Assembly: GCA_973895155.1 (NCBI GenBank)
Contig: OZ316891.1
Span: 2,803,801-2,867,800 of the forward strand
Length of the DNA stretch: 64,000 nt
Direction: 5' to 3'
Origin: Marsupella aquatica
Taxonomy: Eukaryota; Plantae; Marchantiophyta
Shown here: piece after piece, positions 13,655 to 62,948 of the stretch
Numbering within the stretch: the stretch's first letter is position 1
How the letters are laid out: each line of letters starts with the position of its first letter
Notes under the pieces: generated by a model
The model's database searches: none
Seen by the model: only the letters and a program-made list of their open reading frames with translations
What the model was told of the DNA's origin: nothing
Program-made: the position numbers and the translations under genes

Positions 13655-13827
13655 ATGGGAATTACATCGAAAGGGAATTGCAAAAAGTGGGGAAACGGTG
13701 CTGAAATCCTGCGCTGGGAATCAACACGCAGACCTTGATACCAATTCCCAGCGAAATCCGGAGCGAAATGAGTTCAAATTAACAGTTCTGGTATTTGTTG
13801 CGTTTGGTTGTCTGGTAGGGTGCAGAG

Positions 13828-17795: not shown

Positions 17796-19774
17796 TCAAT
17801 ACTGTGTCTCTAATAGACCATCGATAAGCCCAAACTCCATTGCCTGCATCACATTGAATTGGCATAAGAACTCACAAATTTGAATTTAGCATGCTTCAAA
17901 GTCGACGAGCTTGATAACATGACGAGCGCAATGGAGACCAAATCAATATCCGAATGGATACGGACAATTCTACAAAACAGGATATGCTGAAATGAAATTG
18001 AGCATAGCCAGGGAGAAAAAAAACTCACCTCCGATGCAGCAAAGAAACGGTCACGATCTGTGAATTGCTGTACTCTTTCGAGTGGTTGCCCAGTGAAGGC
18101 TACATACATCTTATCTATTTTCTGCCGGCACAACATCCATCTATCGTAAAGTTAGAGCAGAATAAGAACAGTCCAGCCAAACGTGAAACCTTCCCCTCGA
18201 CTACCAATCCAGAAATGTATTTTGATTCCAAGCAAAACTAAACAGCAAGATATGGCCAACACGAATGATGGCAGGGATAAGAACGTACATCACGTGATTG
18301 CATGATTTCATTCACTTGCCGTCGCACGTCATCAGCTGTTCCCTGCAAAAACACTTAAATCTGAGACTTATATTCTGCAGATACCCTAATGACCATATGT
18401 CCCACTGGAGAATTATCACAGTTCCATCTTCAAACGGGGATATGTCTATTAAAGCATGCAGTAGGGAATGCAGCCAGCTTTGTAGTAACAGCAGAGCTAA
18501 TGTGCACACAATATTCATATCTGCAGGTAGAAGTTTAATCATTACCCCACAACCACCTTGGGGCTGGTGAATCATGATGCGCGCGTTGGGCATTGCAAAG
18601 CGCCTTCCCTTCTCTCCTCCTGCAAGTAATAGTGCCCCTTGACTTGCAGCTATTCCAAAGCACACAGTGCTAACTTTCGGCTTTATCTGCAGCGACGTAA
18701 AATATACACCACAAAAAAACTCAGACAGGTTCGATTTATGTTTCCTTGGTTGTCGAAACAAAATGTGTTAGACAGCCCAAACACGAATGGTTCGCCTTCG
18801 ACTGATAAGTAATTAAAGAAACCTACCTACAGAAGGAAGGAGAGCTTACCCATGCCATGGTATCATAGATAGCTAGAACGGAGTAAGTACTTCCTCCAGG
18901 ACAATTTATGTACATCTGCAAGCAAATGACGTAAGTCGTAGCAAAATTCAGTATTATGGTGGGAGATCGTTTCCTTAAATTGATTCGCATAACATGTATC
19001 GGCCTCGACTATACTACTTTGAAACAAGAAGTTTCGAGTGATATGCACATTGACCACTAAAATGGCTGATTGTTCGTCCAACAAAACTGTCTGGACAGAT
19101 CAAACATTTTCCTTTTGACCCTAGATAATCCTCAGTGTAAAGATGCTGTTAAGAAGCCCCTCACCTTAATTTCCTCGTCCTCATCAATTGCAGCCAAAGT
19201 CAACAACTGTGAGATGACTCGCTGAGCAACCTGTCCATTCACCGGCGATCCAACAAACACTACCCTATTTCTGAGCAGAAACGTGGACAAATCCGTAGGC
19301 CCTGATGGGGTCATCACAGCAGGCATAATCGGTGGAATTCCTTTCCTTGCCGCGCGGATGTTCTCTACACTGCATTTTATCACAGCTGAGGATGATGATG
19401 CCGCAGGCCGCCGAAAATTGACCTGACGGGCTGGAACCTCAATCCTACTAGAGCCCCTGCACAATTTGACACAGGCCACGCCACCAATCGTTAGGACAGA
19501 ATTCCCGAGCTACTGAGGGCTCTAGAGGAATAATAGTTCCGTCCCTAGGCTCCAACAGATGACAACGCCATACATTCCAGATCAAGAATTATTGTCAGGC
19601 AGACCACAGAAACCTTTCTCTTGAATGCCCACTTCTACAACAGAGATACGAACAGAGGAAACCCAGCTGAAATAGAAAGAAAAAAAGTGGGGAACGGCAC
19701 CACAGAATCCTCGAATCTCTCAAAGGGCGCTGGCTATGGCCTCTGATCGAGGTCGTAGCTGAAACCGCGGCCAT
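17796..19774 (-). CDS. CLPP6: Plastid ATP-dependent Clp protease proteolytic subunit 6 (nuclear-encoded)
   Basis: Exons encode [29 protein letters not shown]...[54 protein letters not shown]...[37 protein letters not shown]...[10 protein letters not shown] and [15 protein letters not shown] (stop at 17796-17798). Catalytic Ser/His/Asp are present. The transit-peptide exon boundaries are approximate. Confidence 0.9.
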
Positions 19775-34171: not shown

Positions 34172-36611
34172 GAGATGGTGCCCCAATTATTGTAAAACAT
34201 AAATGGCCGTATCTCGATCGTTTGACCTCCGCTTGTGCATCATTTACGAAGCCGTGATCAGGAAGAGCAGGGTTACCCAAGTATTTTTCAGAAGTGAATT
34301 CTGAGAAAATTATATTTTTGACAATTGTTAGGGGCCCCTCTTTTTGCAGCGGACGGTAGTGGCAATCAGGAGGATGGTGATCGATGAACATGGTTGTTCA
34401 TATCTTAGGGATGGTCTGTGACAAATTGACAGACCCAATGCCTTTGGACACCCATACCTCAAGGTGGAAACAATAACATGCTATCCAAGTGAAAGGTGAC
34501 ATTTTTTGTTTTAATTAGGTGATTATTCCAAAAAGAGAGTTAAAGTATCAAAATCATAAAATTTTAAAATTTTAAAGTTTTTATAAGGCCCTTTAAGCAA
34601 ATTTAAGTTAGTATAAGCTCAAATGGGTAAGGATACCATTGGAAGACGTCAAGGCTACTCTGGTTTTCACATATTGGACGTCCATGGCGGCCGGCAGTAG
34701 GGCGCGAGCTTCGACCCTCAGTGCTCACTTGTTAGACCACCATTCGAGCTCATTTCAATTGCTATAGGAGCGCAACTGCCTAGAGAATGTTCACCCCGAT
34801 TCTGAACTGCCATTGATGAGACGTTGAGGAGTATTGGGTCATCGATGCTCTCTGATTTCTTAGAATTGAAGAAATTGCAATTTCAAGAGCTTCACTTGAT
34901 TAAAGCTCCTTCATTTCTATCTCTTTTCAGTTCATTCCTTCTCCCATAGTAACGCAGCTACCTTAGATCCCTGAGATTTCATTCTTGAGCCTCCATGCTT
35001 AACCATTTTTAGGAGGAGAGCTCTAGAGCCTTCTCAGATTTTCTGACACTAGAAGAAACCGGCCCATTCTGAGACCCTGCCTTAAGTGACTCTAATGAGA
35101 CCTTGCAAAATTTGTGACTCCTAGGTTTTGGGTGTCATTATAGTTACAAGTTGTGGACTGAGTTTTGGAGAATTCTTGGGAAGTCATTTCTATAACTATT
35201 GGGGAAGTTGCAACTATAACTAAGTTCAGCCAACAAGAATGAAGTTGTATAAGTGACTCCCTCTACAATAGAGCGTTATATATGTAAGAGAGCCTTAGGG
35301 TTTAACACCACAATCTAACCACATTTGACCCCGCCCAACACATACCATTTAGGATATATCCTAATTTTCTTAGTTGTCAATGGGACTAAAGGAGATGCCC
35401 TCGGGATATTGTGTGAGTACGCAACTCTACAAGGTAAGTAAAGGTCCTTGGTCAATGTCAATGCTAACAGATCTCAAATATATACTCTACATTAGAGTAG
35501 ACTGAATTACAACATATGTATGCCACAAGTTTACAAGTGTTACAACATAACAAAATAATCCCAACTAGCTAGGGTCCCACAATGGCATGCATGTAATATT
35601 AATTGGACTCATTTTTGTGTCTAAATGGGTACATTTGAAGTTATCTCCTTGGTTATCTCTAACTCTCACATATGCAAGGGCAGGTTATTTTTACTTATTG
35701 CACGCCATGCCATGCATACATACCGTCATGTACCCCCTCCACACATTGTTCCATCTAGATTCCTTTAATTAAAGGTTCAAAATCACCAAGAACTGGGAAT
35801 GCAGCTGGAACCTCCATGTACTTGGCATGTCTACATGTTATAATTAGACATATCTGATAATGGCACCCCACACACTATGCTCATGGAATGAGCATAAGAA
35901 CTTGTGACAGTCCTTACCTTAATTAATCAAGCAAGGATCTGACGGTCGTAAACTTAATCAAAGGATGATCTGACGGTTGAAAACAAATATGGGCACATTA
36001 AACCAGGTTTAGGGTTTAATGGATTCCTTCACGCCAACTCCCATTGCGCCTTGGATTCCTTTGGATTTGCGGACGAGGAGCTGATCGCGCATTCTTTGCG
36101 AGGGAAAAAAGGGGGCAGTTTGTCGATCACTAAGGCTGAAGCTGCATTGACAAATTGCAATCCCGACTGCAATGGGAGTAGTAGGAGGCAAGAAGAGCGA
36201 GTTTAGGGTGTTGCATAGACAAAACAGAATGTGAGTCGTAGGCAACATTCAGCCATTGTATGTGTTTAGCATTGATCATAGGCACTGTGGGAGGCACTGC
36301 AGGAGGCGTTTGCCACTGCGCAAGGCACTGTAGGAGGCACTTGTTCCTTCAAGCTGGGAGAGTCAATTTGACGTTCAGCTGCAACCTGGGATCGAGAACC
36401 AGGAGCTTCTCATTGCGGTTTGGTGTGCATTTGGACTGTTCTTGCAAAGTGGGACTCCAGGCCTGGAGACATTGCATTGATCGCCTTTGGATGTACATTG
36501 CAGTCCGACTAGGAGGCTTTCAAGTGGAGCTGGGTTGGAAGTGAGTTGAAGATTGAGTTGCCATCACATTGCAATAGCGGGGGATTGTTGCTCAGCTTCA
36601 CATACTGCTAC

Positions 36612-38162: not shown

Positions 38163-38716
38163 GACGCGGACTCACCTCGTGACTGCAAGTATAGTTGTCT
38201 AGGTGATGTATGCATTGCGTGTTTAGGGTCTAGGTGACATCGCTGCTAAGCAAAATTTGTGAGCTGCCTAGGTCCATTGCCGAATGTTGCTTCCTTTAAA
38301 TTACCTGGTGCCTGCTGTTACAATCGCCTGCTCAATCATGCACCCAATCGCCTGGAGCTCATTTGCCTGGAGCTTCATCCGTCAGATTCAAACTGTTATT
38401 GCTGCTCTGCCCTTTTGCCATGGGTTGCCGGCCTACCGGATGCTATCAACAGATTAAGAACAAGTCATATCCTAAGTCCCGGTGTTGCAGTGATGTCCCC
38501 GACCCTAAGATGCTTTCCAAACTCATCTTTCTTGTTTCCTGTTGCTGCTGATGTATGTATGTTCTCCCCTATTTTTGCTTACAGATTGGTCTCTCCACAC
38601 TTCTTGCTTGACATGATTGTTTTGCTCCTCCCTGTATCAGAACATGCCTTGTGCCCGGCGGTGGGGTGGGGGGGTGAACAGACGACCTTAAGGTTCACTA
38701 CATTTCTAGGAACTGT

Positions 38717-38877
38717 GCATCTTTCAGCTGATTTTAGCCGCAAGTTCCCTTGCTTTCCCCTGTTTTTGCTAAGATCCCTCCCACTAATCACATGCATCTT
38801 TCAGCTGATTTTAGCCGCAAGTTCCCTTGCTTTCCCCTGCTTTTGCTAAGATCCCTCCCCACTAATGACATGCATCC
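38717..38877. repeat. Two ~76 bp tandem copies
   Basis: GCATCTTTCAGCTGATTTTAGCCGCAAGTTCCCTTGCTTTCCCCTG.TTTTGCTAAGATCCC..CCCACTAAT.ACAT occurs twice. Confidence 0.9.
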
Positions 38878-41867: not shown

Positions 41868-42564
41868 AGGACCACTTGTCACACCGCATGCACAGACCAG
41901 ATACCATTGACCTATAGCTTAACACTCTGACTTCAACACAGAGGATATTTACTTAAAATTTTGATGTATGAGCAATTTTGGGTCCAGGGTTTAGGGTCAA
42001 CAGTACATAACTTATATCCTATTATGCCTGCACTAAGCAAAATATCCTAATTTAAGAGGCTAGCAAACTCGCATAAAAGTCTCTATTGAAAGACTGCTTT
42101 CATGACTGCTTTAACCTGTGAACATTGCAACGTTGAATGAATTAATGGGCCATGTGATAATATGCAAAATGATTTATGCCTCACTTATTTGTCTCAGCCA
42201 CTATCATAACCTATTTAGGATGTATAAATTTCAACCCTTATGACACTGCTTCATACCAATCCTCTTCGAAGAATGCCTGTTTTACATGTCACGACTATTG
42301 TATGTGATTCAAATGCATGAAATGTTGTTGCAGATCTCCTTTGGTGAATCATAGCCACAATTAAAATTGAGGTGTTGGTGGAGAAATTGTATTAGGGGAT
42401 CAGTTTTGTGTGTGGGCTCAACATACCAAAAGTATGTGTGCTCTGCATCCTTGTGTGGCCATTCCAATTCATTGCAGTAGCAAATGCCTTTGTACCTTAA
42501 ATGCTAAATATATTTTACTTTCTGTGCAGTCTGCTAAATTGTAGAGTCTATCTCATGCGCAGGC

Positions 42565-43245
42565 ATGGCACGGCCTAAAATTCAAGCCAAAAAGCGTGTG
42601 ACAGAGGTGAGAAACACAGGTGTACTTGGGGCAGATGCTACTAACTTCTCTGCAAGTCAGATTTTCCAGAAGGCAGCTCATTGTTGTGCCATTTGTGACG
42701 ATGGTGGGGGCCTGGTCATTTGTGAGGGCCCTTGCATGAGGCATTTCCACCTCAACCCGGAGTCTGACCTTGCTGCAGAAAACAACTGTCCAGGGGTGGG
42801 CCTCCCGTCAACACACCAGGGAGACTGGATGTGCACTGATTGTTTGGAGAAGCAGGCTAAGTGTGCACAGTGTGGGAAGTTGGGGTCCTATGAGGGCTCT
42901 GTTGATGCTGCAGCAAATGTTAGGAAATGTCCAGACCGTTTTTGTGTGAGATTTTTCTGTTTTGAGTGTTTGCCTGCTCATGCCACAGCTTGCCCACTTC
43001 ATAGGTGCAAGGCATGTGGTGAGCATGATGATGACTACTGGACTGACATAGTCCACTGTGCTAGGTGTCCCACTATGTGGCACTATCATTGCCTGAAAGA
43101 TCATCAAGCAGAGGGTTATGCTTGTGACAGAGAAATCTATGATCACTCTGCACATGGTGTTGATCGATGGATATTTTATTGTCATCGCCATGCCATTGAT
43201 CCTACCTCGCGCACTCCTGTGAGAGATCACATATCTTGGCTGTGA
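42565..43245 (+). CDS. Stand-alone EDM2-like triple-PHD finger protein (226 aa), CACTA cargo
   Basis: Intact ORF with CAICDDGG.LVICEGPCMRHFH, WMCTDC...AKCAQCGKLGS, CPLHRCKAC, CARCP..WHYHCL and FYCHRHAIDP...TPVRDH. This is colinear with the EDM2 PHD region as I recall it (CAICDNGG..CEGSCLRSFH...LGSS...CPLHKC...CRRCPKSYH...YC..HEID...TPVRDH). Confidence 0.85.
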   Translation: MARPKIQAKKRVTEVRNTGVLGADATNFSASQIFQKAAHCCAICDDGGGLVICEGPCMRHFHLNPESDLAAENNCPGVGLPSTHQGDWMCTDCLEKQAKCAQCGKLGSYEGSVDAAANVRKCPDRFCVRFFCFECLPAHATACPLHRCKACGEHDDDYWTDIVHCARCPTMWHYHCLKDHQAEGYACDREIYDHSAHGVDRWIFYCHRHAIDPTSRTPVRDHISWL

Positions 43246-43837
43246 AGCTGAACATTGTACATGCACAGTGCACCTGATGTGGATGTACTATTTTTTGAGA
43301 TTGCAGAGATTCCAATTTTGAAAAGGAGTTGGGTAGGCGAGTTTATATAGGCAGCACTTATCTTGTGCTCTGGCGTCAGTGGCTGGGTACATGCCTATAC
43401 AAACTTATCCTTACAAGCCTTCTTGGAAGTATTTAGGCTGAGTGGTCATTTTCATAAACACTTTCATCACACTGCTAAATTAAAACAGGACTTCTAAATT
43501 GTAAGCGTATAAATTATCAGGCATGCAATTAATCAAATTGCCCTATAAGTTTGTCATTGAATGTATCCTCCTTTACAACAAAATATGTATGTGCCATGAC
43601 AAGTTGGTTGCACTTCATTTCACCACGGATATGGATTTTGTAGTATATATTCAAACAATGTCCTGCATCCGTGCAGGTGCCTAGTACGTATTGTTCACAT
43701 ATCCCTTGTACCTATCAAAATCGGACCTGAGCACCAGTGGGCCAGATCAACTCAAAAAGCAGGAATTTTGTTGTCCTTGTATTGTCAGGTGAACCCATTC
43801 TTCCAAAATTCACTGTCATCACGTAGGGTGTGTGTAC

Positions 43838-44710
43838 ATGGAGCCTGGTAAACGTAGAAAGTGTGACCACCCAGCAGTGTTTACAGGGGTCAGAGCGATT
43901 TTGGTCCATGGCCAGCATGGGTTGACCAAAGTGCATTGGCCAACTGTACAGAAACGATTCTCTGAGCTCCATGGCACTGTAGTTCAAGACATCACTCCAG
44001 AGACTACACATGTTGTTGCAGGGACATGGCTATCAGTGATAAAGAAGTGGTCATGGTCCTACATGAATTCTGCAATTACTAAGCAAGGCCTAAAAGTAGT
44101 TGAGGCCTCTTGGATCACAGATTCCATAGCACATAAGATTGTACAGGATACTGAGCAATATGAGTTGTGGGAGGATGAAGAAGCTACTGCATCAGCTTGG
44201 GCTGAACAAGAAGTCTGGGAAGCAAAGGCACGGCTTGCTGATCTCCAATATGGACCTGTACTCAACAAAGGACAGAGCTCTACAAGGCTGAAGAGTATGT
44301 TGGCTGAGGAGACGAAGCAACCAACCCCCATTCTGAAAGGGCTGAGCATGGTATTTGTGGAGGCGGGAATTGGAGAGGTTAAGTGCAAAGTGTACAAGTC
44401 CACAGTGCTTGACCTAGGTGGGACAGTGGAGGAGAATATAACAGAGGACACCACTCATGTCATTACTAAGTCATATCCCAAAGCCTGCCGCAAGTTTGGG
44501 AAGGGAGACATTCGCTTTTATGTCATGTCCCATAATGTGTTTGTGGTTTCATATGCTTGGCTTGTGGAATCAGTAGCAGCTGGGAAGCGTCAAAACCCAA
44601 TGGACTATGATCTTTTTGAGGCCTGGCCACGGAAGGGTCAGGATCCTTACAGAGAGGACTATGAGACAACAAGTGAGGAATGGGTCATTAGCGATTCTGA
44701 ATCAGAGTGA
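43838..44710 (+). CDS. Tandem BRCT-domain protein (290 aa), CACTA cargo
   Basis: Two BRCT repeats: FTGVRAILV...LHGTV...TTHVV...VVEASWITDSI...YEL and LKGLSMVFVE.G...LGGTVEE...TTHVI...KFGK...VVSYAWLVESV.AG...YDL, followed by an acidic tail. Confidence 0.85.
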   Translation: MEPGKRRKCDHPAVFTGVRAILVHGQHGLTKVHWPTVQKRFSELHGTVVQDITPETTHVVAGTWLSVIKKWSWSYMNSAITKQGLKVVEASWITDSIAHKIVQDTEQYELWEDEEATASAWAEQEVWEAKARLADLQYGPVLNKGQSSTRLKSMLAEETKQPTPILKGLSMVFVEAGIGEVKCKVYKSTVLDLGGTVEENITEDTTHVITKSYPKACRKFGKGDIRFYVMSHNVFVVSYAWLVESVAAGKRQNPMDYDLFEAWPRKGQDPYREDYETTSEEWVISDSESE

Positions 44711-45143
44711 GGAGTAGTAGCATCAGTTTGGACACAAGTTTTTTTGTATAAATCAGATCATTGAAATAAATGTGATCTTTGAACTAATGTACCTTGTTAT
44801 GGTTGGTGGCAGTTGGGCTTATTTTACTGTTGGCGGATTGTTGTTTCCTGCTGCCTGGGGGTGTCACTGTAAACGTACATGCAGAGGCGGTACATTTGAG
44901 GACAGCGGAGGAGGTGGTGACACCCTCCAACATTTAGAAATTTTGTGTCATTCACTTGACAATAGGTACACTACTTGCGAACCTGTTTTTTTCTTTTGGG
45001 GTGGTTTAGGGTTTGTGAGAATTTAGTACACGTTATGTTAACTCTTTTGGCAGATACAGTCAGGGATATATGGAACACAAATACCACCATTAGGCATCCT
45101 TGTTCACTGCTGTCCATGACTGCAGAGCTCCCAGCCTGTTACA

Positions 45144-48100
45144 ATGCACCCTGGTCACCACCCTCCCCAGACCCAGCCCAGGGCACAGGCACTGCCTTTG
45201 CATCATCCCACAAGGATATCACGCCATGATAATAAGCTTTGGCAGCGTGAAAGGTTACGAACCAGACTTTCAGGAGCCAGTAGGATGAGATGTCCTTGTG
45301 CAATCTGCCAAGGATCCCGTACCAGGGGTCTGAATGAGGTTTGGCGGCATATCGCGGTTCATGGAAGAGATCCACGACATCGAGTTTGGAATGATCCTGC
45401 AGAGGAAGATTCTTCCGACGAGGAGTGGAGGTTAGAATTTGATGCTGCCAATGCTGCAAGACGGGCAAGTAAGGTTCTGCCTGGTGCATTTGAAAATGTT
45501 GTAGCTGGTCTCTGTGGGTTGTCAGCTCTCCAACGGGATGGTGCTCAGGCAGCACCACGTGATGAAGGAATTCATGTGGAAGAGATGGTGAGAGACATCT
45601 TCCAAGACTTGGATGCATTTCATGATGGGCTGGACAATGAAGAGGATACGGTTGCAAATGCAAGTGTGCCCCCTGTCAAAGAGCCTCTTGATGAGTTTGA
45701 GATAGGGCAGGAAACCCCTGGGCATGATGGGATGTTTGGCTCTCCCCTGCAAATACAGGAAGGCAGGAAGTCTTTGTACCCCGGTAGCAAATGTTCTAAA
45801 CTGGGATTTGTCATCATGTTCCTGAACATTTGCGGCAACCACAATGTCCCCAACGTTTTGGTTTCTGAGTTGTTGGCATTCTTGCGAACAACTGTGCTAC
45901 CAGATGGTAATATTTTGCCCAAGAACATGTACGAGGCAAAAAGATGCATATCTAATCTTGGATTGAACTATGATTCGATCCATGCCTGTCCTGATGGGCA
46001 TGTTCTTTTCAGAAAGGAGTATAAAGAATCGTTGACATGCCCTAAGTGTGGGAAGCACAGGTATCGGAACTCAGGAAAGTCTATGGTTCCCGCCAAGGTA
46101 CTTCGTCATTTTCCACTCATTCCCAGACTTCAGCGGATGTTCAGAAGCCGTGCCATCTCGGAGATGATGACTTGGGCAACTGACAAGAAAAGTGATGATG
46201 GGCTACAACGACATGCTGCAGATTCAAGGCAATGGAAACTCATAGATGAGATGTATCCCGAATTTGCTGCTGAGCCGAGGAATGTCAGACTTGGGCTGTC
46301 ATTGGATGGGGTAAACCCATTTGGAGACAAGAACAACAAATTTTCATGCTGGCCTGTAACTATTTTGAATTATAACCTTCCTCCTTGGATGACTACAAAG
46401 CGATTTTTTGTTCTGATGGTCCTACTGATACCAGGGCCAGACAGTGCTGTATCTGCCAACATAGATGTGTTTCTGGCTCCCCTAGTGGAGGAATTGAGAA
46501 ATCTTTGGGAGGAAGGAGTTCTCACATATGATGTCCTACAGAGGCTTGGGAGGTTAAACCCATTCATCCTTAGAGCCATTGTCATTCTGACTATAGCTGA
46601 CTACCCAGCCCATGGGATGATATCAGGCCAAACAACAAAAGGATATTGTGCTTGTACTATCTGTGGGCGCAATGTCACCAGTGAGTACTCCAGAGCCCTG
46701 CAGAAAGTGATATACATGGGCCATCGTCGTTTTCTAAAGACAGATCACCCTTACAGAGAAAGACAGGCACTGATTGCACACTTTGGCAATGAGATTGAGC
46801 AACGTGGACCCCCGGCACGAGTGACCAAAGAGGAGATCAGGCAGTGGGGAGCACTAAGGGATGACTATATCAAACGAGGGGGCAGGGAAGATGGAGTGAG
46901 TGATCCAATAAAGCGATATGGTGTAAAAAGACTGAGCATATTGGACTTGGAGCTCAAGTACTGGAGGGTAAGCCTCTTGGAGTTGATGCTAATTGGGATA
47001 CATGTTTTGGTTCAGAGCATGTGCATTCATTTCGAAGAGAGAGACTAAACTTGAGGCATTTCCTGACGCTTTTGCATTGCAACGATGCAGGAGTTTGAGC
47101 CAAGCAAACATAACATTGATGTTATGCACATTGAAAAGAATATTTGTGAGAGTCTACTCAGATTCTTGTGTGGAGAGAAAGACACTGGTTCAGTGAGATT
47201 GGATCTTGAACAGAGGGGAATGAAACCCCATCTTTGGTTGAGGCCACATGCCCACAGAGCTGATGTGCTCTTGAAGTACCAAGCGCCCTATGTTCTGACA
47301 GACACAGAGTGGGAACTATTTGTGCAGAGGTTGAGTTCTTTGAAGGTTCCTTCAAACTATGGCAGTGCTTTCAAGAAGCATATCATGACTAGAAAGCTTG
47401 GTAGTATGAAAAGCCATGACTACCATATGTTGATGCAACAGGTGTTGCCTTTATGCCTGAGGGGCCTGTTGCAGAAGCCTGTTCGTACTGTGATCATGCG
47501 ACTCAGTGATGTGTTTCGTCGTATTTGTGTGAAGGTTTGGGATGAAACACACTTCCCACAACTGACAGAAGATGTCGCTCAGGTGCTGTGTGACCTGGAG
47601 ATTTATTTTCCTCCCGCATTTTTTGATGTCATGACCCACCTACTTGTCCATGTTGTGGAAGAGCTACACCAATTTGGGCCTGTGAGTGCTCGTTGGTTGT
47701 ACCCTTTGGAACGGTACATGAAGCTACTCAAAGGTCACGTGAGAACATATTACAAACCTGAAGCAAGCATGGCTAAAGGTTACATCAAGGATGAGACTCT
47801 GGGATTTCTGACCGAATACATAGCACAATATGAGCATGTGAAGACCAGGGTGTGGAATTCTGATGAGGAGGAAGGGGTGGTAGGTGAAGTACTGGAAGGG
47901 GCTGCAACCACAAAGAACCTGACCATATCTATGAGAGACTTGGCACATGACTTTGTATTGCACAACACTGTGGTGATGGAACCCTGGATACAGTGAGTGC
48001 ATACATGTGCTATAATCCAGTTCATGAGCTTAAATGTTGTGTTCGTGTGGTTTTCTCCTTCAGCCTGTTCATGTTTACCCAAGCTAATGCTGTGTGGTTG

Positions 48101-48875
48101 TTCGTTCAGGGAGTATGAGTCATTGAAGGCGGCCCATCCCACTGCAGGAACAACTTTTCCAGGTTTCATGGAGTGGATCAGAGTGGCAATTAGAGAGCAT
48201 CACGAGACCCACCCAGACATGGATGCAGATGTTTACCTACTGTCTAATGCCCCTAGCCTGAAAGTGAAGACTTACAAACGGATGAGAGCATATGGGAATC
48301 ACTTCCGAGTGAAGGATGGTGACAGTGCCTACAGGGTGACGAATGACTGCGGGCTCATCACTGTATTTGAGCAACAGAGCCACAATCACAACAGGGCCTG
48401 GATGGAGATGGGATATGTGGGAGAATTAGTTGACATATGGGCTCTGGACTATGGGGCGGTGTCCAGTCCTGTGATTCTTATGAAAGGTTCATGGGTGCGG
48501 CAGGATTGGCTTGCTAACAGGGCTACCATGAAGAGAGACAACGACGGTTTCTTGCTGGCCAATTTCAGAGGGAAATTGCCCGAATGGTCTGAGCCATTTG
48601 TGTTTCCTAGTCAGGTGGAGCAAGCTTTCTTCCTGGATGTGGAAGACTCCCCAGGTTGGCGTGTAGTGTGTCATAAACAGGCCAGGCAACGCCGGATGGA
48701 AGGATCAAACCTTGAGTTTCATTTACACTCTCATAGTGCCTTTGATCGTCGGCGTTCAGACCAAGTGCCTGTAGTTCATGATAGCGGGGACTTCATTCCT
48801 GTGACAAGGGTAGATGCATTTGCTGAAGGAGGCGAATTCAGAGATGCAGATGCCAACAGTGTGCCTGTGCCATGA
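45144..48875 (+). CDS. CACTA TnpD/TNP2-type DDE transposase (~1160 aa, 3 exons), apparently intact
   Basis: Exons 45144-46967, 47091-47992 and 48110-48875 are phase-compatible. Motifs: N-terminal CPCAIC..HIAVHG, IHACP..CPKCG, LRHFPLIPRLQRMF, LSLDGVNPF, IADYPAHG, HNIDVMHIEKN, MKSHDYH, FPPAFFDVMTHL, YPLERY, EPFVFPSQVEQAFF. The exact start codon is uncertain. Confidence 0.95.
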
Positions 48876-49031: not shown

Positions 49032-52000
49032 ATGGAACAGAGTGACACAGAGATGTGTGAGTATGAAAGGAAAGCTATGGAACAACGAGCATACGTGAAA
49101 GCCAAAATCGCAGAACTGGATCTGGAAAAGGATGTGGCTGAATTGTAAGGGAACGATTCTCAACTACACCCCTCCGCTGAGTTTGTGTGACATGAATAGT
49201 TCAATGTGGCACTGAAATTGTGACTGTATTCTCATATTGGAATGTCGCAGAGCCACAACATTTTCAAAGAAACAAAAGGAGTACGCAAGAAGGGTGACCA
49301 GCACTATCTCTGGGCCTGTGCGTCGGAGTGACAGGTTGAGCAAGAAGGTCGTACCTACAATGGCAGAATGTGGAGATGACATTGATGCTGCACAGGTGGG
49401 TGCAGACACTAGACAAGAAGATGCAGATGATGAGTATTTTCCAGAGGAAATGGATGAGGATGGGGGTTATGAAGATGAATACATTGCAGAGCAGCCCCAA
49501 AAGAAACATGTAAGTAGTTTTCCCAACAAGGTTTTGAGTTAAAAACTCTTGTTTAGAGGTTTCATATGTTCAGTACTACACATATGTACCTTGCTTAGTT
49601 CCTGACATTGTAGTTGGTGATGTGATGCAGCGTCCTGCCAGTTCTGTTTTGCCTTCGAAGCCTGTGCATGCACCATACCAGCAGGGGGGGCTGACCTCTG
49701 ATCAAGGTTGGCGAGGTGGTAGTAGTGGTAGATCCCAGGCTGGTGCCCAATACTATGGCAGGGGGCAAGCTCTAGGTTATGCCCGTGGTAGAGGCAGAGC
49801 AGGTCCAAACCCACAATCTCGTGGGTATGGACGTCCACCTCAACCGTGGGGATGTGAGTATATATCTATATGCCAGTTCTTTGTGAAGGCATGGCACTCC
49901 TGAATTTCAGACTGCATATCAATTTTTGACATTGTTTGGGATGTATTGGATTCAGACAACATGAAATTCTGTCCACCTGCCATTGCATGCAGATTCTGCC
50001 CAACCTGATTGGGCAAATGCTAGTAATGATCAGTTCCAATGTCCACAAGGACAGACATGGGTTGAACCAGGTTGGGAGGATGGTGGTGGGTCGTGGAATG
50101 AACAAGGTTGGGAAGGTGGTGAAGGTAATTGGCAGGGATATCAAAATACAGTACCTACAAACGCTGGAAGAGGAGCAGGTAATGTCTGATCTTGTCAGCA
50201 ATGGAAGAACTCATTATATGTGGAGTCCATTCACGTGGGGGGGACTCTGCACATGTATAATGATAGAAAATGTATGTGTGCAGGTTGGACAGTTGAACCA
50301 TCGACTCAAGTATTCACTAATGCCCCTATGCAGATGCAGCACGGAAGGGGGACAGGTATGTCGGTGAATGTTCAGTTGTTTTCCTACAGTTTGTACTTAG
50401 TTTTCAGTACATATGTTTGCACACACATACCTAGAAAGTGACATCATCCGGCCCCTGTACTAGGCTGGACAGGTGGTCCAGGGTCGCAACAATTTTAGAG
50501 TGCAGTCCCTGCACAGGCATCTACAGGCAGAGCTACAGGTATGTATGTTTGAAGAATTTTTCTTGAAGTGAAGCATTGAATGTTGCCGTCATCCATTCTG
50601 CTATATGTAGTTCTCAAGCATGAATGGCATTGTATTTTCCCAGGTGGCTTCAGAACCCCAGGTAGGGTGAATGAAGGGGTGGCCAATACAACGCCCAGTA
50701 CTACCGAGAGCAGTGCACGAGGGGAGGTGACAAAGAAAGGGAACGTAAAGTTGAATGAGAGACAATGGGTGGATGCTGAGTGTCCTCGCAAGAACCGATG
50801 GCATGCTGATTTGAAAGCTGAAGTATTGCGTTGGTTAGATGTGAGTGTTATTAATTTTAAAAAACAGCATCCAAAAGATTGGAAGACTGTATGTGAAAAT
50901 GTTGCTGCCAAATGGAATTATGTGGGCAGTGATGATGGCGTGGACATAGGTTGCCTAGAGAGTACAGCAGGTAAAATTATCAAGCAAGAGAGGTGGAGAA
51001 TGCATAAGGCTTGGAAGGAAGGTGGGGAGAAGCCAGATATGCCTCCACCAGCCAGTTGTGATGATAAAGTGTGGGCAAGGTTAGTAGCTTATTTTGTAAC
51101 AGATGCTTCAAAAAAGAAGAGTTCACAGATGACCGAGGCCAGGTTGAGTGTTCAGAACCCTAATCTGACAGGAAGGACCGGCACTGCACCGACAGCTAAA
51201 CGTTTGGTAAGAATGAATGGCCTAGCTATGTAATTTATGCTACACTATGTACTATTTTTTAGTGTAAACCCATACATGTAAACTTTGTTTTTTAGTGTAC
51301 GTTCCCTGAATATTGATCGATAACTTGTGTTTGCCATGCATGTGCAGAAAGCCCAATTGGGGCAAAGCCCTTCAAAAGAAGAGTTGAGGGCTGAAATTGT
51401 GAACACCTGGGCTCAAGAGGGTGCATCTGAATCCTCCAAGCATGTAAGTTATATGAGTTCTGATTGGTAATTGAATGACCTGCGTTGAATTTCAGGTGTA
51501 CACTGTATATAACATTGATTGTGCATATATTGCCCAACATTTCATATGGAGTGATTGAACCTATACCCCTGTGTCATGTAGGGAGGTGGATCTTCACTTA
51601 CAGAGATAAGTGGTCGTTTGAAGGCTGTCGAAACATGTCTTCCAGAGATCAATGAACGTTTGAATTCATTGACTGACTTGTTCCATGTGAACTTCAAGAC
51701 ATTAATGGAAGCTGTTGTGTCGGTGAGAGATAAAATTGATTCCAATTCTGCAGGAGTTCCACCATCACCACTTGAGGTGGCAAAGTTGATGCACTCTTCT
51801 GGCATGCCAACGACATGTAGGCTTGAAGGTAAGGCCTTTACAACTGTGTGGGATATGATTATTAAATGTATAGTTTGAATTGACATTGTTTGTTGAATGT
51901 GTTATTTTCAGTAACATATATTGTGGTTGTTGTGTCCATAGAGAATAAGACAGGTGCTACAGAGAAGAAGTATGAGAACCTGGCAAATACTCGCTGTAAT

Positions 52001-52738
52001 TTAGAGGCAACAAAGTTGCAGTCTGTACAAGCAACTTGTTTGACAGAGGGCAGTCAACCATGTTTGGATGAGGATGACATTGGCAAGGGAGTGGATGATA
52101 TCAATGTTGGGGCAAATGAGGATATCAGCAAGCATGACAATGATACCATTGAGCCAGATTCATGCTATGTAGATCTTGACTCCATTGCAGAGATAAATGA
52201 TTTGCAGAATGTATCATTCTCAATGACAGGTGTGCCTCTTGTTGAGATAAATCCAACCAAAGAGCTAGTTGGTATGACACTCCCAGGTGATGAACCTGCT
52301 ACTGTGACAGTCCTAACAGAGGAACCTACTGAGCCTAGCTTCACTACTGTGAAGAGAGGAAGCATGCGCACACGAAGCAAGTCTGCTGGTGGGAGCAGAG
52401 TCACGTCAAAGGTTTCATACAAACCTCCAAGAACAGTGCTGGCAGAAAGATCTAAGGTGGAAGTGGGGAAAGCACCTAATGCTGAGGGACAAAGTGGCTT
52501 GTTAGTTGTTGATGAGAGTGGAACACGAGTAGGATTTGCCAGAGTGCAGGTTGGTTCCACAACGTTCCATGGCAAGAGGATTCCCCCAGGTTATTCAGTA
52601 GTGTTAGTCACATTACTAGTGAAACCTAAAGCTGTCCTTCCCATTCCAAACACAAATGATGATCCTCCTCAAAAGACACTTGGAGATGCTGCAGGTTCTT
52701 TGGTATTATGGCCAAGCAAGTTCATAGAGGATCCATAA
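49032..52738 (+). CDS. CACTA TnpA/TNP1-like protein (Ptta/En/Spm-type domain), 10 exons, ~876 aa, with one in-frame stop in exon 6
   Basis: Exons 49032-49144, 49251-49509, 49631-49853, 49993-50178, 50284-50355, 50464-50538, 50644-51206, 51348-51443, 51582-51828 and 51942-52738 are all phase-compatible. Motifs: EYERK...L.L start, W..LV.YF.T...KKKS...EAR..V.NP..TGR, and C-terminal HGKRIPPGY..V...LP.P..DD....LGDA.G..VLWP. TAG at 50496-50498. Confidence 0.8.
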
Positions 52739-53593
52739 CAATGTCATGCCATTATTTGTTTGTAGTGTGAGTCATGTTATGTAGATTTTAGATGTCAAGA
52801 AGCAGTACAAGAATCATGTCCTCTTGGAGATTCATAGTATCATGCATGTGCTTTCAGTTATCTCATCCTACAGTCATCAATTATGAGTTCCTGTTTTGTC
52901 TAAATTACATTGATCACATTGTAAACTATTCCATTGGAATTCAAATGATCTTCATTTTTTAGCAAGATTGTGATTGTGTTTAATTCTTATGAATGTTTTA
53001 TGTAGGATCTGCTTATATGATGCTTTGTTTCATGTGGATGTCATTCATGCTATGTTCATTTCTTGTATTCAATGTGTTATATTTCTAAAGTTAGAACATC
53101 AGGTTTCTATGTATTGTAATGTCGAGTGCTCTCTCTTCTTATGAACTGTCCCTCTGTGTTCATTAGTCATGGTTATAACTTGCATGTGAACCTTATTAGT
53201 TATAAACATGAGTATATAGAGTCCCAAATGGTTCTGTTGTGTGACGCGGGCCAGGGTCTCCATTGGTCTCTCCTGTGACACTAAATAGTCACACGCTAGT
53301 CGTTGTTGAATGCGGGTAAGTCATGTATGTGACTTACGATGTGACTCGCTGAAGTCATATTGCAGTCACGTCGAAACAAGGCTAGACTCCACAATAAAGT
53401 CACAGATCAGTCACAAATGGGTATCAAGCAAGTTGCAAAGCCCAGTATCAATAGTGACTTCCATTTTTTGGTCTCAACTTTTGCAACTCCAAGGGTCACA
53501 GCGTGGGTCAAGTCACGTTGAGTCACAATGAAGTCACATGAGCCAAAATGAGTCATATATTGCGGTCTCAGTTCACCTCGGATTCTTCTAGTG

Positions 53594-54074
53594 CTCGTAG
53601 GGGTCTGCAACTGAGGGTCAATCGTATGGAGGTGGCAATACAAAAACCACCTATCAACCCCGTGTGCAGAGTGGGAATAAATTTGGCGGTCACATGCATA
53701 CCCTTCTACCTCAAGGGCTAGTAAACACTCATGGTGCCAGGCTGTGGGACATCTGGGACAATGGACCATGTCTATCCAGTAGTCATCATCAGGCTCCCCA
53801 CAAGCAGGACAAATATGTAGTGGGCAAAGGGAGTTATCATGGGGCAGCCATGTCAAACAAAAAAAACGAACACAAAACCTGTCAGGACATTTCCACAGCT
53901 CTGGTTGATCCCCCCCAACAGTGCCATTTGTGCCACATTGAGCACACGTGCTGATATTAGTGGCACAATCAAAGCAAGTCCAAGCACCCCGATCGTCCCC
54001 CCGGACCCCAGGGCATGCATTTTGTGGTGCATAAGTGGACCAGGAATTGACATGGAATTGTCTCAGACAGGGAC
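53594..54074 (-). pseudogene. Second copy of the EDM2-like PHD cargo gene, frameshifted and truncated
   Basis: Reads PCLRQFHVN...NACPGV...WTCFDC...TCAQCG, then a frameshift, then KCPDRFCVRFFC...CPLHICPACGEPDDDYWIDMVHCPRCPTAWHHECL...EGYACDRQIYSHSAHGVDRWFLYCHLHTIDP..QTP. It stops at the TIR of element A. Confidence 0.9.
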
Positions 54075-54174
54075 ATAAAATCCAATCAAATATCCCAAAT
54101 AACCCCTAGCCTATCAACCCAACCCAGCCTTAACATCCTATCCACCACATCCTGTAAATTGGTTTGTCTTGTCA

Positions 54175-55545
54175 CACAGACCGAGAGAGAGCAAGGAGAG
54201 AATTTAGCAAGGAGAAAATTCTGCTCAGTGTTGAAGTAGTCCAACCGAAGCTGGTATAGACGTGCCACAAGACCCAGGACTCTAAGATTGGACACTCGAT
54301 TGCTAATCCTAAAAGATTGTGTAGAATAAAAGTGGACAATTGTTGGGCTAGCATTTTCATAGTTGAATAAAGGAATTCACAAGTCAGAGAACCCAGTACT
54401 TCCGCACAACACTTCCGCACACTAGAATACTAGTGTATGACATTAGAGCAATTGAAGCTCCACAGTCGAGGCAGAATGAAAGTGCCGACACTATACTATG
54501 ATCCAGTCTACACTTCCATAGTGAAATCCTGGCTCGACCCTGGCCCCGACCTGAGATTGCTATAGTGATGGGCATGCATAAGAGAGGGAGAGATTTCTGT
54601 ACATACTTGAGTATTGAGAGAGAGAGAATTCTGCAGCAAAGAAGATGATGGTGAGCAAAGACAAACAAACAGAGTACTGACAAAGTGGAGAGAGACACAC
54701 GGACGGAGAGAGAGCAAGGAGAGAATTAAGCAAGGAGAAAATTCTGCTCAGTGTTGAAGTAGTCAAACCAAAGCTGGTACAGACGTGCGAGAAGACCCAG
54801 GACTCTAAGATTGGACACTCGATTGCTAATCCTGAAAGATTGTGTGGAATAAAAGTGGACAATTGTTGGGCTAGCATTTTCACAGTTGAATAAAGGAATT
54901 CACAAGTCAAAGAACCCAGTAGAACTTAGTTGTAGAGTAGCATATTGAAGCAAACATGCGAGTCTACGAGCAGCAAATTAAAATATTGGCAATGGCAACA
55001 CAAACGCCCGACCCTGAGACCACCAGTGAAGACAAAGCAATGACAATGCAGAGGGCTCTGAGTGATTGCAGACCTCAGGAGTTGAGAAACCCTGGAATGA
55101 TTTCTTTGTGCCTAGCTTGGCAAAAGAGAAAGCTCTCGAACGGGTGGAAAATTGATCTGTAAGTGCCACAGACAGAGTGTGGCTCATCAATTCTGTGGCT
55201 CATCCGTTGTCCATGGAGGAGTACATTATAGAGTATCACATTTGACTAATGTCCTATACATGGAATACAGGACCGTTGAGTTGAAATCGCAGCTCAGCAA
55301 AGGCAAAGAAAAACCCCCCGCACCCCACCTTAGTTCTGCACAACACTTCCGCACACTAGAATACTAGTGTATAAGGATGGTGGGGATTCAAGCTTCACAG
55401 CCAAAGTAGAATAAAAGTGCCGACAATATACTTTGATCTACATTTCCATAGTGAAATCCAAGTTTGACCCCGGCCCCGACCTCAGATTGCTATAGTGATG
55501 GGCGTGCATAAGAGAGGGAGAGATTTTGTACGTGCTTGAGATTTT
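54175..55545. repeat. Mosaic direct duplications inside CACTA B
   Basis: A ~225 bp block at 54175-54399 is repeated at ~54697-54921. A ~200 bp block beginning CACAACACTTCCGCACACTAGAATACTAGTG at ~54405 is repeated at ~55339. Confidence 0.85.
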
Positions 55546-56494: not shown

Positions 56495-56652
56495 AGCCAG
56501 TGACATGTAAGGGAGCCAGTTACATGCAAGGGGCTCATATAAAGGAGCCAATGACATGTAAGGGGCTGATGTAAAGGAGCCAATGACATGTAAGGGAGCC
56601 AGTGACATGCAAGGGGCTCATGTAAAGGAGCCAGTGACATGTAAGGGGCTCA
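56495..56652. repeat. Minisatellite built from GAGCCA(G/A)TGACATG(T/C)AAGG units
   Basis: Six copies of AGCCARTKACATGYAAGGG, interspersed with GCTCATGTAAAGG-like spacers. Confidence 0.9.
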
Positions 56653-56927
56653 CCTAATACCTCTACTATTTGAGACTTTCTCACATTAAAAGCTTGAATG
56701 TTTGGCAATTGGTGATTAGCACTCACTCACATAAGTACTTAGCACTAAGACATTTGGCTTGGATAGTGGACCTGCCATTTTCCTTATGAAGGAGTCGCAA
56801 CAAATGAGTGGATAGTTTGTAGAAGTGATACTTAAGATATATGTAGTGATAACTCCCTAAACTTCCATAACCTTGTCACATTAGTCAATAGTGGTTTGGT
56901 CAAAAATAGGGGGTACTTCTACTAGTG

Positions 56928-59628: not shown

Positions 59629-62600
59629 TGTTAAGCATAGACGACATTCGCAATGGCAAGCCCATGAACCATCCAACGCACAATAGTCGACACATAGAGA
59701 TACGTGGTTCACATCCACATGAGACTATGTCCACGAGAACACACCAGAGCTTTACTGCACTCTAGGCCGACCGGCCATACCAAGCATCCACAGCACAAGC
59801 TCTCCCTATCTCTCAACTAGCTCCGTAACAATGAGCCTAAGTTCCACCAGGGTCTGGCATCAGCCCTGGCTATATGCACAACAGCACTACCGCTAACATT
59901 AGCTAAGTCCTAACCAAAGTTAGACTAACTATGGTTAGCTCATGAGTCACAAGACTAGAGCAATATCTAACAAACTCCCCCTTGACTCTTGTCTTGGGGA
60001 CTGAACTAAATGCTACCATATGGAATCCTCAGCAGGAAGTTCTAGACAATCACCAAACCAGGTCTCCCCCTAAAAACCATAAGGGTTAACTAAGGGTTAA
60101 CTAGAACTAAGCCAAACAGGAATGAGTAATCCATATACAAATAGTCACACATTGCTAAATAACTCTACTTGCACTACAACTGCAAAACCTATAAAGTAGC
60201 ACGGTGTCTTGAGAAACTCTCCAAAGGATACACTTTGGTAAAGGCATCAACGGGATTGAGTTTTCCATCAATCTTGACTAGCTCAAAAATTTTAAAATTT
60301 TTATCAGACACTGCTTGCCTAATAAAATGATACCTGATATCAATGTGCTTCATCCTGATATCCATCACTTGGTTAGCAGCCAAGTGAAGAGCACTCTGAC
60401 CCATCTCCGCGATCAATTTGTCCAACCAAATTGCCAAATTGGGGAATACTTAGCTATCGGTGAAAAAACCAGACCAAAAAACACAACAAGCTGACACAAG
60501 ATCCAAATTGTGGAATACTTAGCCACCGGTGAAAAAACCTCATTATAATCAACTCCTTTCTCTTGAGTGAATCCCTTGGCAACAAGCCTTGCCTTGTAGA
60601 TCTTATCTCCACCCTCTGAAGGACTGTCCTTTAACTTGTAAATCCACTTGCTGTCCATCACTTGCTGACCTCTTGGAAGCTCCACGAGCTCCTATGTCTT
60701 GTTGTCACTCAAAGATTGCAACTCCCTCTGCATTGTTGCATTCCGCTCATGCTATACTCTGAAGCACAAGCCTCACTGTACGAAGAAGGCTCTCCTTCTT
60801 CCAAGATCAAAGCCATATCATCTTCATTAGGTACAATATCAATATCATCTAACTTAGATGAGTCTACCCATTGACCATACCTGGTAGGAGCTCTAGTAGA
60901 ATGACTGGAAGTTCTTCTAGTAGATGACTCAGGCTGATCTGCGCTGCTGCTGGCTGAATTTGAGGTACCCCAGCAACAATCTGCTCCTTTTGTTCCATCA
61001 CAGGAACCAGCTCCAAGCCCGGAGCTTCTGCATCTCTCCTGTCATGAACAACATCATGACTAATCTCCCCTTCAACCCGGTCCGGGATGGGAGATTTCCC
61101 CTTGTCAATATGGGAGTCCTGAGAACTCTCCCCCTCTTTTGATGATCTGGATTCATTAAAGGACATATCTCTACTGACCATTAGTTTACAGGTTACTGGA
61201 TCCCATAACCTATAACCCTTCACAGCTTTCTGATAGCCAAGGAAAATGCACTTTTTTGACTTGGACTCCAACTTGGATCAAAGCTGGGAAGGTGTAAGCA
61301 CATAAGCATCACATCCAAAAATCCTCAGATGTGAGTAATCCATTGGACGCACGTACCTCATTTCAAATGGCGTCTTGAATCTAATAGAACTGGATGGAGA
61401 AAAATTTACCAAATAAGCTGTAGTGCTGACAGCTTCAACCCAAAACTCATGTGGTAAATATGATTGACTTAACATACTCCTCAAGCGGTCCAATAGTGTT
61501 CGATTGAGTCTCTCAGAAACACCATTCTGCTGAGGAATATAACTTGTTGTGAGATGGCGGGTAATCCCCTGCTCCTTACAATACATTCCAAATTCCTTGG
61601 AACTGTATTCACCGCCGTTATTTGATCAAAGATATCTCACCTTATTACTAGTTTGATTCTCAACTTGGGCTTTCCACTCTTTAAAGGTGGCAAAAACATC
61701 AGACTTACTATGTAGAAAGTATATCCACACATACCTTGACTATTCGTCTATGAACGTGACATAGTATAACCGTCCAGAATGTGAGGGAGTAGGGGCTGGA
61801 CCCCACACATCACTATGTACGTACTCAAGTACCTCATTGCTGGTTTGAGTTCCAACTCTAAAGGGTTTCCTATGCTGCTTCCCAAGCACACAATGCTCAC
61901 AGAATTCCAACTTACAAGATTGCAAATTAGAAAGTAATCCTTTCTTCTGAAGAATAACCAAACCTTTTTCACTCATGTGGCCCAAACGGAAGTGTCGTAG
62001 GCCGTCTCCTCATGAGACAAGGTTACATTGGCTTTATCACAGACTACATTGCCCTCCAAAACGTATAGATTATTATGTCTCTTTCCCTTCAATACAACTT
62101 TAGTACCAGTTGAAACCTGAAGGACACCATTAGTAGAACTCCACTGATGGCCATTTGCTTCTAAAACTCCAAGTGAAATGAGATTTTCCATCATGCTGAG
62201 AATATGTCTCACATTCCTCAACGTTCTTACAGCACCATCAAACATCTAAAATCTTACAGATCCAAGTCCAACAACTTGACATGGGATTCCATTTCCCATC
62301 AACACTGACCCGTTGGAAACCATGTAAGAACTGAAAAAATCTCTCCTAGAGCAAATGTGAAAAGTACATGCACTATCTAGAATCTAGTCATCACTACCTG
62401 GATTTGACACTACGTTGAGAGCATAACCTTGGCATCACAATATGTCATCATCATCGAGTAAATCTACCTCATGCGAGCTTGATGCTGCATTTGCTGATGC
62501 AATAGGGTTTTTTACTCGACAATCCCTTTTCATGTGGCTAGGCTTGCCACAATTCCAACATGCAAGAGGCTTCCTTTCTTGCAATTTTGCTCTAGATTTA

Positions 62601-62820
62601 GATGTCCTCCGTGATGTAGATCTAAACCTGTTCTGCCCATTTGAGCGCTGCACTGCTCTCCCACGGTTCACGTTCAGCGTAGTGCCAGAAGAAGATGCTG
62701 TCTGTGATTGACCCAACTTCTTCTGAGCATTATCAAACAATAAAGAGCTCACCACCTCATTATACAAATGGACTTCAGATTTCTGTATAAGAGCACCTGT
62801 TTCAAGCCCTGGTATGACGG
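59629..62820 (-). mobile_element. Decayed Ty1/Copia LTR retrotransposon (gag-PR-INT-RT-RH plus 3' LTR), 5'-truncated
   Basis: Zinc knuckle CWNCGKPSHMKRDC, protease ILDSACTFH, HMSEKGL..CEHC, integrase VHSDVWGPA / NGGEY / PQQNGVSER, RT YKARLVAKGFTQEKGVDYNEVFSPV, RNase H KHIDIRYHFIR. PPT AAGGGGGAG lies next to the TG...CA LTR at 59972-59629. Many stops and frameshifts; most of RT is deleted. Confidence 0.93.
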
Positions 62821-62948
62821 CGATGTCATAATTTTCTCTTAAGTTATAAAAAATTGTTTGTTTTAATATGCTATAGATTATATAAGTAATTTAGTAGTTA
62901 GATTATTAAGTTTAGATTTTATTAAAACTCTTTAGCTATATTAACGGA

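Follow-up and report, generated by a model that had tools for sequence, protein, structure and literature searches.

The TnpA protein of the maize CACTA transposon En/Spm binds the subterminal repeats of its element and brings the element ends together. Spm TnpA has also been linked to demethylation, and one CACTA-borne microRNA is directed against a methyltransferase. Among pathogens, mimicry of glycine–tryptophan (GW/WG) motifs is said to be practised by the viral proteins P38 of turnip crinkle virus (TCV) and P1 of sweet potato mild mottle virus (SPMMV); P1 of wheat streak mosaic virus (WSMV) and HopT1-1 of Pseudomonas are likewise described as GW-motif silencing suppressors. In one meeting report (PMC12859917), VANC of the Mutator-like VANDAL elements is a plant DNA transposon's own anti-silencing factor. 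Here we describe the predicted second gene (open reading frame 2, ORF2) of a CACTA element in the liverwort Marsupella aquatica, found in a 64,000-nucleotide stretch of contig OZ316891.1 (assembly GCA_973895155.1, positions 2,803,801 to 2,867,800), which we call the window and in which all coordinates are counted. Four predicted exons of this gene (exons 3–6, 49631–50538) encode a segment rich in Gly, Gln and Trp, which we read, with a probability of about 0.4, as a disordered, multivalent linker of RG (Arg-Gly) motifs and aromatic residues within a TnpA-like protein. The product can be described as a CACTA ORF2 protein with an apparently gained GW-type repeat linker, for which an Argonaute hook is a candidate function.

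The gene resembles maize En/Spm TnpA and Transposase_24 proteins in being a second gene 3' of a TnpD-type transposase, in the predicted coiled-coil that follows and in candidate short subterminal repeats. It differs in that its Transposase_24 match lies below the Pfam cutoff, its seventh exon has no clear solved structural match, and its named relatives are from liverworts at no more than 51% identity. Like the pathogen suppressors P38, P1 and HopT1-1, it would be a parasite-encoded GW protein that could target a host Argonaute; those mimics have a few functionally proven GW motifs, whereas the linker in the window belongs to a DNA transposon and is known from its DNA sequence only. VANC acts by sequence-specific DNA binding without GW motifs and has no sequence relation to this linker. 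A search of the literature found no paper on CACTA elements or TnpA in liverworts, and no transposon-encoded GW hook was described in the literature searched by full text, judged largely from titles and abstracts.

The predicted second gene and its linker

A TnpD-type CACTA transposase gene (45120–48875, + strand) is identified by matches to Transposase_21 (1.8e-70) and DUF4218 (4.8e-28), together with weak matches to DUF4216 (1.3e-4) and the Transposase-associated domain. ORF2 lies downstream of it on the same strand, as is characteristic of the second gene of CACTA elements. The first-pass annotation of this DNA had called the protein TnpA-like, and this is borne out: within the CACTA element it occupies the place of ORF2, 3' of the Transposase_21/DUF4218 gene, and its product belongs to a family some members of which match Transposase_24. 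Reading frames and GT-AG borders were assembled manually into a gene model, with splicing predicted throughout. It comprises 10 exons and 876 codons (49032–52738, +) in one continuous frame with a single stop codon private to this copy, and the borders of all predicted exons are GT-AG. Exons 1 and 2 (49032–49144 and 49251–49509, +) would encode a helical N-terminus and, after it, an acidic part; the proteins P0020 and P0022, relatives from Riccia, open by eye with a helix similar to that of the ORF2 N-terminus. Exon 7 (50644–51206, +) carries the conserved helical domain of the family, the end of which matches the start of Pfam Transposase_24, and predicted exons 8, 9 and 10 (51348–51443, 51582–51828 and 51942–52738, +) would supply a coiled-coil part and a C-terminal domain. 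These downstream exons are supported by the Calypogeia protein P0003, which aligns without a break with the spliced model across the exon 7/8/9 junctions (query 344–585), and by P0014, P0038 and P0040, whose ends are ~40% identical to the last ~85 residues of the ORF2 protein (52400–52738). P0040 is named a DUF8039 domain protein by its source, and a Pfam scan of the exon carrying the ORF2 C-terminus (52400–52738) gave no match.

Between the acidic part and the conserved domain lie the four exons of the linker, all predicted and on the + strand. Exon 3 (49631–49853, phase 0 to 1), in a region with one open frame only, is RG/YG-rich, contains QGWRGG and QPWG and contributes two Trp. The Trp-dense core lies in exon 4 (49993–50178, phase 1 to 1), which has six Trp and includes PGWEDGGGSWNEQGWEGGEGNWQG. 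Exon 5 (50284–50355, 72 nucleotides, phase 1-1) encodes a repeat unit (G)WT...GRGT(G), and exon 6 (50464–50538, 75 nucleotides, phase 1-1) encodes its duplicate, (G)WT...GRAT(G). Spliced at GT-AG borders, exons 3–6 give 186 residues, in which Gly (37), Gln (22), Pro (17), Ala (17), Ser (15), Arg (12), Thr (11) and Trp (10) are the main components. Gly makes up 19.9% and Gln 12%, Pro and Gln together 21% and all three 41%, and aromatic residues, evenly spread as 10 Trp and 7 Tyr, account for 10.8%. Leu, Ile, Val and Met amount to 6.5% of the linker and to 2.3% of its 86-residue core (amino acids 177–262).

The motifs listed by the first-pass annotation (QGWRGG, YGRG...RGRGR, QPWG, PGWEDGGGSWNEQGWEGGEGNWQG, AGW and TGW) are all encoded by these predicted exons, and its count of five GW and one WG dipeptides, plus GSW and GNW, was recovered in the spliced translation. 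AGW and TGW are present only after splicing because a Gly codon is split over each junction. Four of the 10 Trp do not adjoin Gly, and the number of GW/WG dipeptides is no higher than composition predicts (shuffles, P = 0.19; Trp next to Gly, P = 0.10). The real signal is therefore the density of Trp in a stretch rich in Gly, Gln, Ser and Asn and poor in aliphatic residues, rather than GW adjacency: Trp reaches 5.4% in the linker and 9.3% in the core, compared with 8 Trp among the 311 residues of exons 1, 2 and 7. The same region was held to be Gly/Gln-rich and likely disordered. The first description stands (20% Gly, 12% Gln), and at the level of composition, with 6.5% Leu, Ile, Val and Met, the linker is of a type expected to be disordered. 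RGG/RG-motif proteins are defined by RG or RGG repeats that lie close together within Gly-rich sequence, and the linker has this arrangement: exon 3 contains WRGG, YGRG, ARGRGRAG and SRGYGR, later units end GRGAG and GRGTG, and by our own count there are seven RG dipeptides, one of them a full RGG. The DNA at 48–52 kb shows a strong purine and G skew (GC skew 0.19–0.23).

Part of the linker arose by duplication. The first-pass annotation had pointed out that exons 5 and 6 are both small, symmetric and of phase 1, with (G)WT at the start and GRGT or GRAT at the end, and had suggested an exon duplication. Their DNA alignment scores 15, against -9.4 +/- 4.0 for shuffled sequences (0 of 2000 reach it), and their protein alignment 55, against -4.9 +/- 7.7 (0 of 5000). 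Each exon together with its following intron measures 180 nucleotides. Both exons also align with the tail of exon 4, which shares the GW at the start and the GRGxG at the end, and all three segments are tandem duplicates.

These features led us to favour a multivalent linker. The RG/RGG-type part would contact nucleic acid non-specifically, and the evenly spread aromatic residues (10 Trp and 7 Tyr) would drive self-association, so that many protein molecules could assemble on repeated subterminal sites of the element. Candidate sites exist: GTGAC[T/C] motifs occur at 8 per 500 nucleotides at 53001–53500, compared with a window mean of 0.53, and this cluster could represent subterminal repeats or protein-binding sites. 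The other explanations weighed below (an Argonaute hook, a docking region, filler and an untranslated segment) and the multivalent linker are not mutually exclusive.

Copies of the element and the predicted reading frame

We compared the window with other copies of the element, represented by contigs from four public DNA runs (X1, X2, X5 and X6) on the exon 3–6 region; of two more distant runs, X8 gave one contig touching 49993–50031 and X9 gave none on the region. Word depths of the contigs reached ~2,000–6,000 in X1 and ~5,600–26,000 in X2, and contigs at least 99% alike numbered 128 of 293 in X1 and 292 of 775 in X2. Depths in the thousands and the many near-identical contigs indicate a young repeat family of very high copy number that occurs in several related organisms.

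This comparison bears directly on exon 6, in which the window copy has an in-frame TAG (50496–50498, +). Measured by depth, C is found at 50496, giving CAG (Gln), in 1884 of 1907 for X1, 7919 of 7919 for X2, 57.5 of 57.5 for X5 and 2.6 of 2.6 for X6, and much of the family has C at 50495 too. The near-universal C in other copies indicates that the TAG is private to the window copy. On the predicted gene model, ORF2 is defective in this copy unless splicing leaves exon 6 out. The first-pass account of the motifs was right, and it had overlooked this stop.

Variation among the copies was used to ask whether the predicted frame is coding. We defined a common variant as one with a share of at least 25% in X2 or X5, and analysed 40 of the 45 such variants. 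The exons (556 bases) held 15 of them and the introns (352 bases) 25 (odds ratio 0.36, P = 0.0024), a contrast that would persist (P = 0.027) if the five remaining variants were all exonic. The 15 exonic variants comprise eight synonymous changes, six missense changes (R176H, G177S, Q217P, G218A, Y248F and T251S) and one at the stop codon of the window. With 131 synonymous and 422 non-synonymous sites, the ratio of non-synonymous to synonymous rates (dN/dS) is ~0.23–0.29 (binomial P = 0.007–0.019), for small counts and copies that are not independent events. Exon 3 contributes four of these variants (two synonymous and two missense) and exon 4 eight (four of each), of which seven are non-synonymous in the other open frame of exon 4. 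That frame (49930–50367) was rejected as an alternative, with 18 non-synonymous variants, including two stops, against three synonymous ones. The pattern fits translation of exons 3–6 in the predicted frame under moderate constraint.

We consider it very improbable that exons 3–6 enter no protein, being mis-predicted or skipped, with their motifs an accident of G-rich DNA. Such a reading would draw on the contigs of X1, X2, X5 and X6, which are of DNA and span the introns: none of the 12 joints listed has GT..AG ends at a predicted intron, nor has any of three further joints in a second comparison of DNA contigs. A look for public runs recorded as RNA that contain the stretch found none, and no relative validates the exon 3–6 junctions. 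Set against this are canonical splice sites with matching phases in one continuous frame, the excess of synonymous variants, which is specific to that frame, and the annotated liverwort relatives, which carry a similar low-complexity segment flanked by the same domains.

Loose contig ends of X2 (50083–50184) include copies in which exon 4 differs upstream of 50083, one of them reading K-W-G in frame, which is anecdotal. Other copies at these ends carry an extra GRG-ending unit after 50171. These ends suggest that the number of units varies among copies.

A variable number of units is one of the observations that would be accommodated if the linker were tolerated filler, a slippage-prone G-rich repeat that expanded by duplication and need only stay in frame and flexible. 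The rapid turnover of this region among relatives, the strong skew towards purines and G at 48–52 kb (GC skew 0.19–0.23) and the fact that composition accounts for GW adjacency point in the same direction. However, a dN/dS of ~0.25 (14 variants) and the depletion of variants from exons point to constraint beyond what keeping the frame would impose, within the limits of small counts and non-independent copies, and we regard filler as rather improbable.

Argonaute-hook scores and relatives of the protein

The first-pass annotation proposed that the region is a possible Argonaute hook, to be scored with a GW-motif predictor. We used our own re-implementation of the matrix and decay rule of Karlowski 2010, from which the original program may differ in detail, and scored the linker on dos, the first of the two published filters; the thresholds given in that paper are dos >= 6.99 half-bits and, for the second filter, ics <= 2.14 (PMC2910046). 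The core (amino acids 177–262, 86 residues with eight Trp) has a dos of 37.3 half-bits, and two flanking segments score 17.4 and 18.9. None of 2000 whole-protein shuffles reached 37.3 (maximum 28.3). Elsewhere in the window, the highest-scoring unrelated six-frame segment reached 15.5, and among 70 relatives and cluster members the top score was 10.0. A second GW-rich six-frame stretch in the window (16730–17287, - strand) has many stops, is a tandem DNA repeat and was set aside as non-coding.

In the same paper, 20 Arabidopsis candidates span a dos of 10.8–586, with NRPE1 at 170 and KTF1 at 586, and candidates with scores similar to that of the window linker include RGGA (38.9), an hnRNP (27.7), eIF4B and secreted glycine-rich proteins (PMC2910046). 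The linker passes the dos filter, but RGG RNA-binding proteins score alike. Its resemblance to NRPE1, SPT5L/KTF1, SPT6L and GW182 hooks lies in being Trp-dense, rich in Gly, Ser, Asn and Asp, poor in aliphatic residues and built of degenerate tandem repeats; compared with NRPE1 (170) and KTF1 (586), it is much shorter and weaker (8–10 Trp, score 37), comes from a transposon and not from a host silencing factor, and is known from sequence alone. It also resembles the low-complexity domains of FUS/hnRNP-type proteins and Arabidopsis RGGA in its RG and Tyr-Gly motifs, its Gly-rich spacers and its dos (RGGA, 38.9). RGG RNA-binding proteins differ in turn, since in the window Trp dominates the core, there is no RNA-recognition domain, and the protein is of a transposon DNA-binding type.

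A hook would act through Trp residues, lying among Gly, Ser, Asn, Asp and Glu, that enter the pockets of a host AGO4- or AGO1-type protein. In this scheme the Argonaute would be titrated away from RNA polymerase V (Pol V)/SPT5L-type platforms, or else recruited, and RNA-directed DNA methylation of the element would be weakened as a result. We hold this as a tentative possibility on the unlikely side. The dos of the core, well above 6.99 and unmatched by shuffles, window segments or relatives, speaks for it, as does the apparent gain of the Trp cluster specifically in a very high-copy family. GW/WG peptides make up 6.5% of the linker, within the range of NRPE1 platforms, in which hook peptides account for <2.5% to >10% according to Huang et al. 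2015 (PMC4476159). That source also describes NRPE1-type platforms as having no alignable homology and evolving by repeat expansion, and gives liverwort NRPE1 a WG/GW C-terminal domain (PMC4476159), which would mean that the target system exists in the lineage.

Several of these points have a reverse side. The dos fails to separate hooks from Gly-rich RNA binders, and the 86-residue core is shorter than published WG/GW domains, for which PMC2910046 gives 92–654 residues. The motifs are clustered as in AGO-hook proteins, with 10 Trp in 186 residues, but Gly adjacency is within composition (P = 0.1–0.19) and 4 of the 10 Trp are not beside Gly. None of the 10 TGG codons carries any of the 40 common variants, which would be in keeping with a hook, but ~0.8 would be expected by chance, so that this count has no power. 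Finally, upstream of the conserved domain 25 relatives hold 0–5 Trp and 0–2 GW/WG.

These relatives were found through exon 7. A HMMER search with this exon returned 62 relatives at E <= 0.001, the best at 51% identity; ten were looked up and five were named, all from the liverworts Calypogeia fissa and Riccia sorocarpa. Exon 7 itself matches Transposase_24 at E = 1.5e-4 with 21.5–22.3 bits, below the cutoff of 28.7, over profile positions 1–50 of 138; the remainder of the profile would fall in later exons, which were scanned singly. Within the family, 22 of 61 members match Transposase_24 at E <= 0.01, the best at 1.4e-7. An AlphaFold2 model of exon 7 is helical, with a mean predicted local distance difference test score (pLDDT) of 89 and a predicted template modelling score (pTM) of 0.76. 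There was no clear match to a solved structure: the best Foldseek hit in the PDB had E = 0.91, and the best Z in VIA-align against all representatives was 5.4, with DNA-binding three-helix domains at Z ~4, within noise. Word-based protein searches, using exon 7 against longer proteins and exon 4 against proteins of similar length and longer, returned nothing; these empty searches mean that no close family member and no host source gene for the linker was found. A protein-language-model atlas searched with exon 4 gave no usable match.

The linker itself could not be traced among the relatives. In the 15 relatives with long upstream parts, Trp makes up 0–4.5%, compared with 5.4% in the linker and 9.3% in its core, and BLAST of the linker against 11 relatives gave compositional matches only. 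Closer relatives have Gly-rich stretches before the domain, with 17% Gly and 14% aromatic residues (Tyr/Phe) in P0003, 24.5% Gly and no aromatic residues in P0016, and 12% Gly in P0010. Homology between the window units and the 24-residue repeats of P0003 was considered and rejected (best z = 2.5; linker against linker, 58 compared with 64 +/- 10 for shuffled sequences), and the tetrapeptide GWTV is all that they share. The Trp cluster thus looks like a gain of this family rather than a conserved feature. As the Gly-rich stretches of relatives have Tyr/Phe or no aromatic residues at all, a role at the level of composition fits better than one specific to Trp.

Several distant relatives do show a Trp-Val/Ile-Pro motif upstream of the domain (TWVPG, LWVPG, MWVPG, QWVP and GWIP), and the window has QTWVEPGW. 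This may hint at a docking region for another partner, of the host or of the element, through short motifs based on Trp or methyl-arginine; examples would be GRG and GRA sites that are methylated and read by Tudor proteins, binding of the element's own transposase, or nuclear import. Docking would suit the purifying selection seen in the exons, as well as the unit ends GRGAG, GRGTG and GRATG. However, the motif was recognized by eye, the alignment of the linker with relatives is compositional only and no partner can be named from sequence, and we give docking little credence.

The multivalent linker has its own difficulties. Trp in place of Tyr/Phe is unusual for such linkers, the density here is the highest of the 15 relatives compared, and a generic linker would not need what looks like a lineage-specific gain of Trp. 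Some relatives lack both Gly-rich and aromatic-rich stretches, and no single property of the linker is conserved across the family. A 1-nucleotide deletion in an eight-G run of exon 3 (49683–49691) is present in part of the copies (50.7 of 127.8 in X5 and 1184 of 14562 in X2), reflecting either frameshifted copies or homopolymer assembly errors. Lastly, an Argonaute hook fits the sequence equally well.

Candidate element ends, neighbouring features and implications

Candidate termini of the form CACTAGAAGAA(A/T)CCG, in which 15 of the first 16 bases match, lie at 35047–35062 and 53578–53593 and would give an element of ~18.5 kb. The flanking triplets differ (TGA and CTC), and the right candidate may fall inside an inverted PHD-like frame. 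Upstream of the transposase are a reading frame with NSD-type PHD fingers (42538–43245, +) and two BRCT domains (43793–44710, +; BRCT 2.6e-13). A 301-nucleotide piece of the PHD sequence is repeated in inverted orientation at 53594–53894 with 70% identity, within a frame of 232 codons (53407–54105, -). A gene for a chromatin reader may form part of the element, the right end of which may adjoin a piece of a related element.

Elsewhere in the window, host genes are represented by exons of a MatE transporter (6514–8051, -), a Noc2 family gene (13819–15864, +; 7e-105) and an exon of a Clp protease (18312–18767, -), and a zinc-knuckle (gag-like) frame of another element lies near the right end (62435–62890, -). 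Repeats comprise a 77-nucleotide tandem duplication (38716–38876), a 226-nucleotide direct repeat spaced by 523 nucleotides with 95% identity (54173–54921) and a tandem array with a period of 32, 51 or 83 nucleotides (56495–56657).

The most far-reaching form of the hook proposal is that a liverwort DNA transposon evolved an AGO4-titrating hook by exon duplication and so shields the element from RNA-directed DNA methylation. We consider this unlikely; if true, it would be a transposon counterpart of the viral GW-mimic suppressors and would help explain the very high copy number of the family. Few routes are known by which plant transposons counter silencing, and an Argonaute hook would then be a new counter-defence that converges with viral and bacterial GW mimics. 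If the segment is a linker only, the locus still documents a large, uncharacterised TnpA-like family of liverworts and, within it, a domain of unknown fold that is modelled with confidence; it also shows how exon duplication has given a very successful element a repeat linker.

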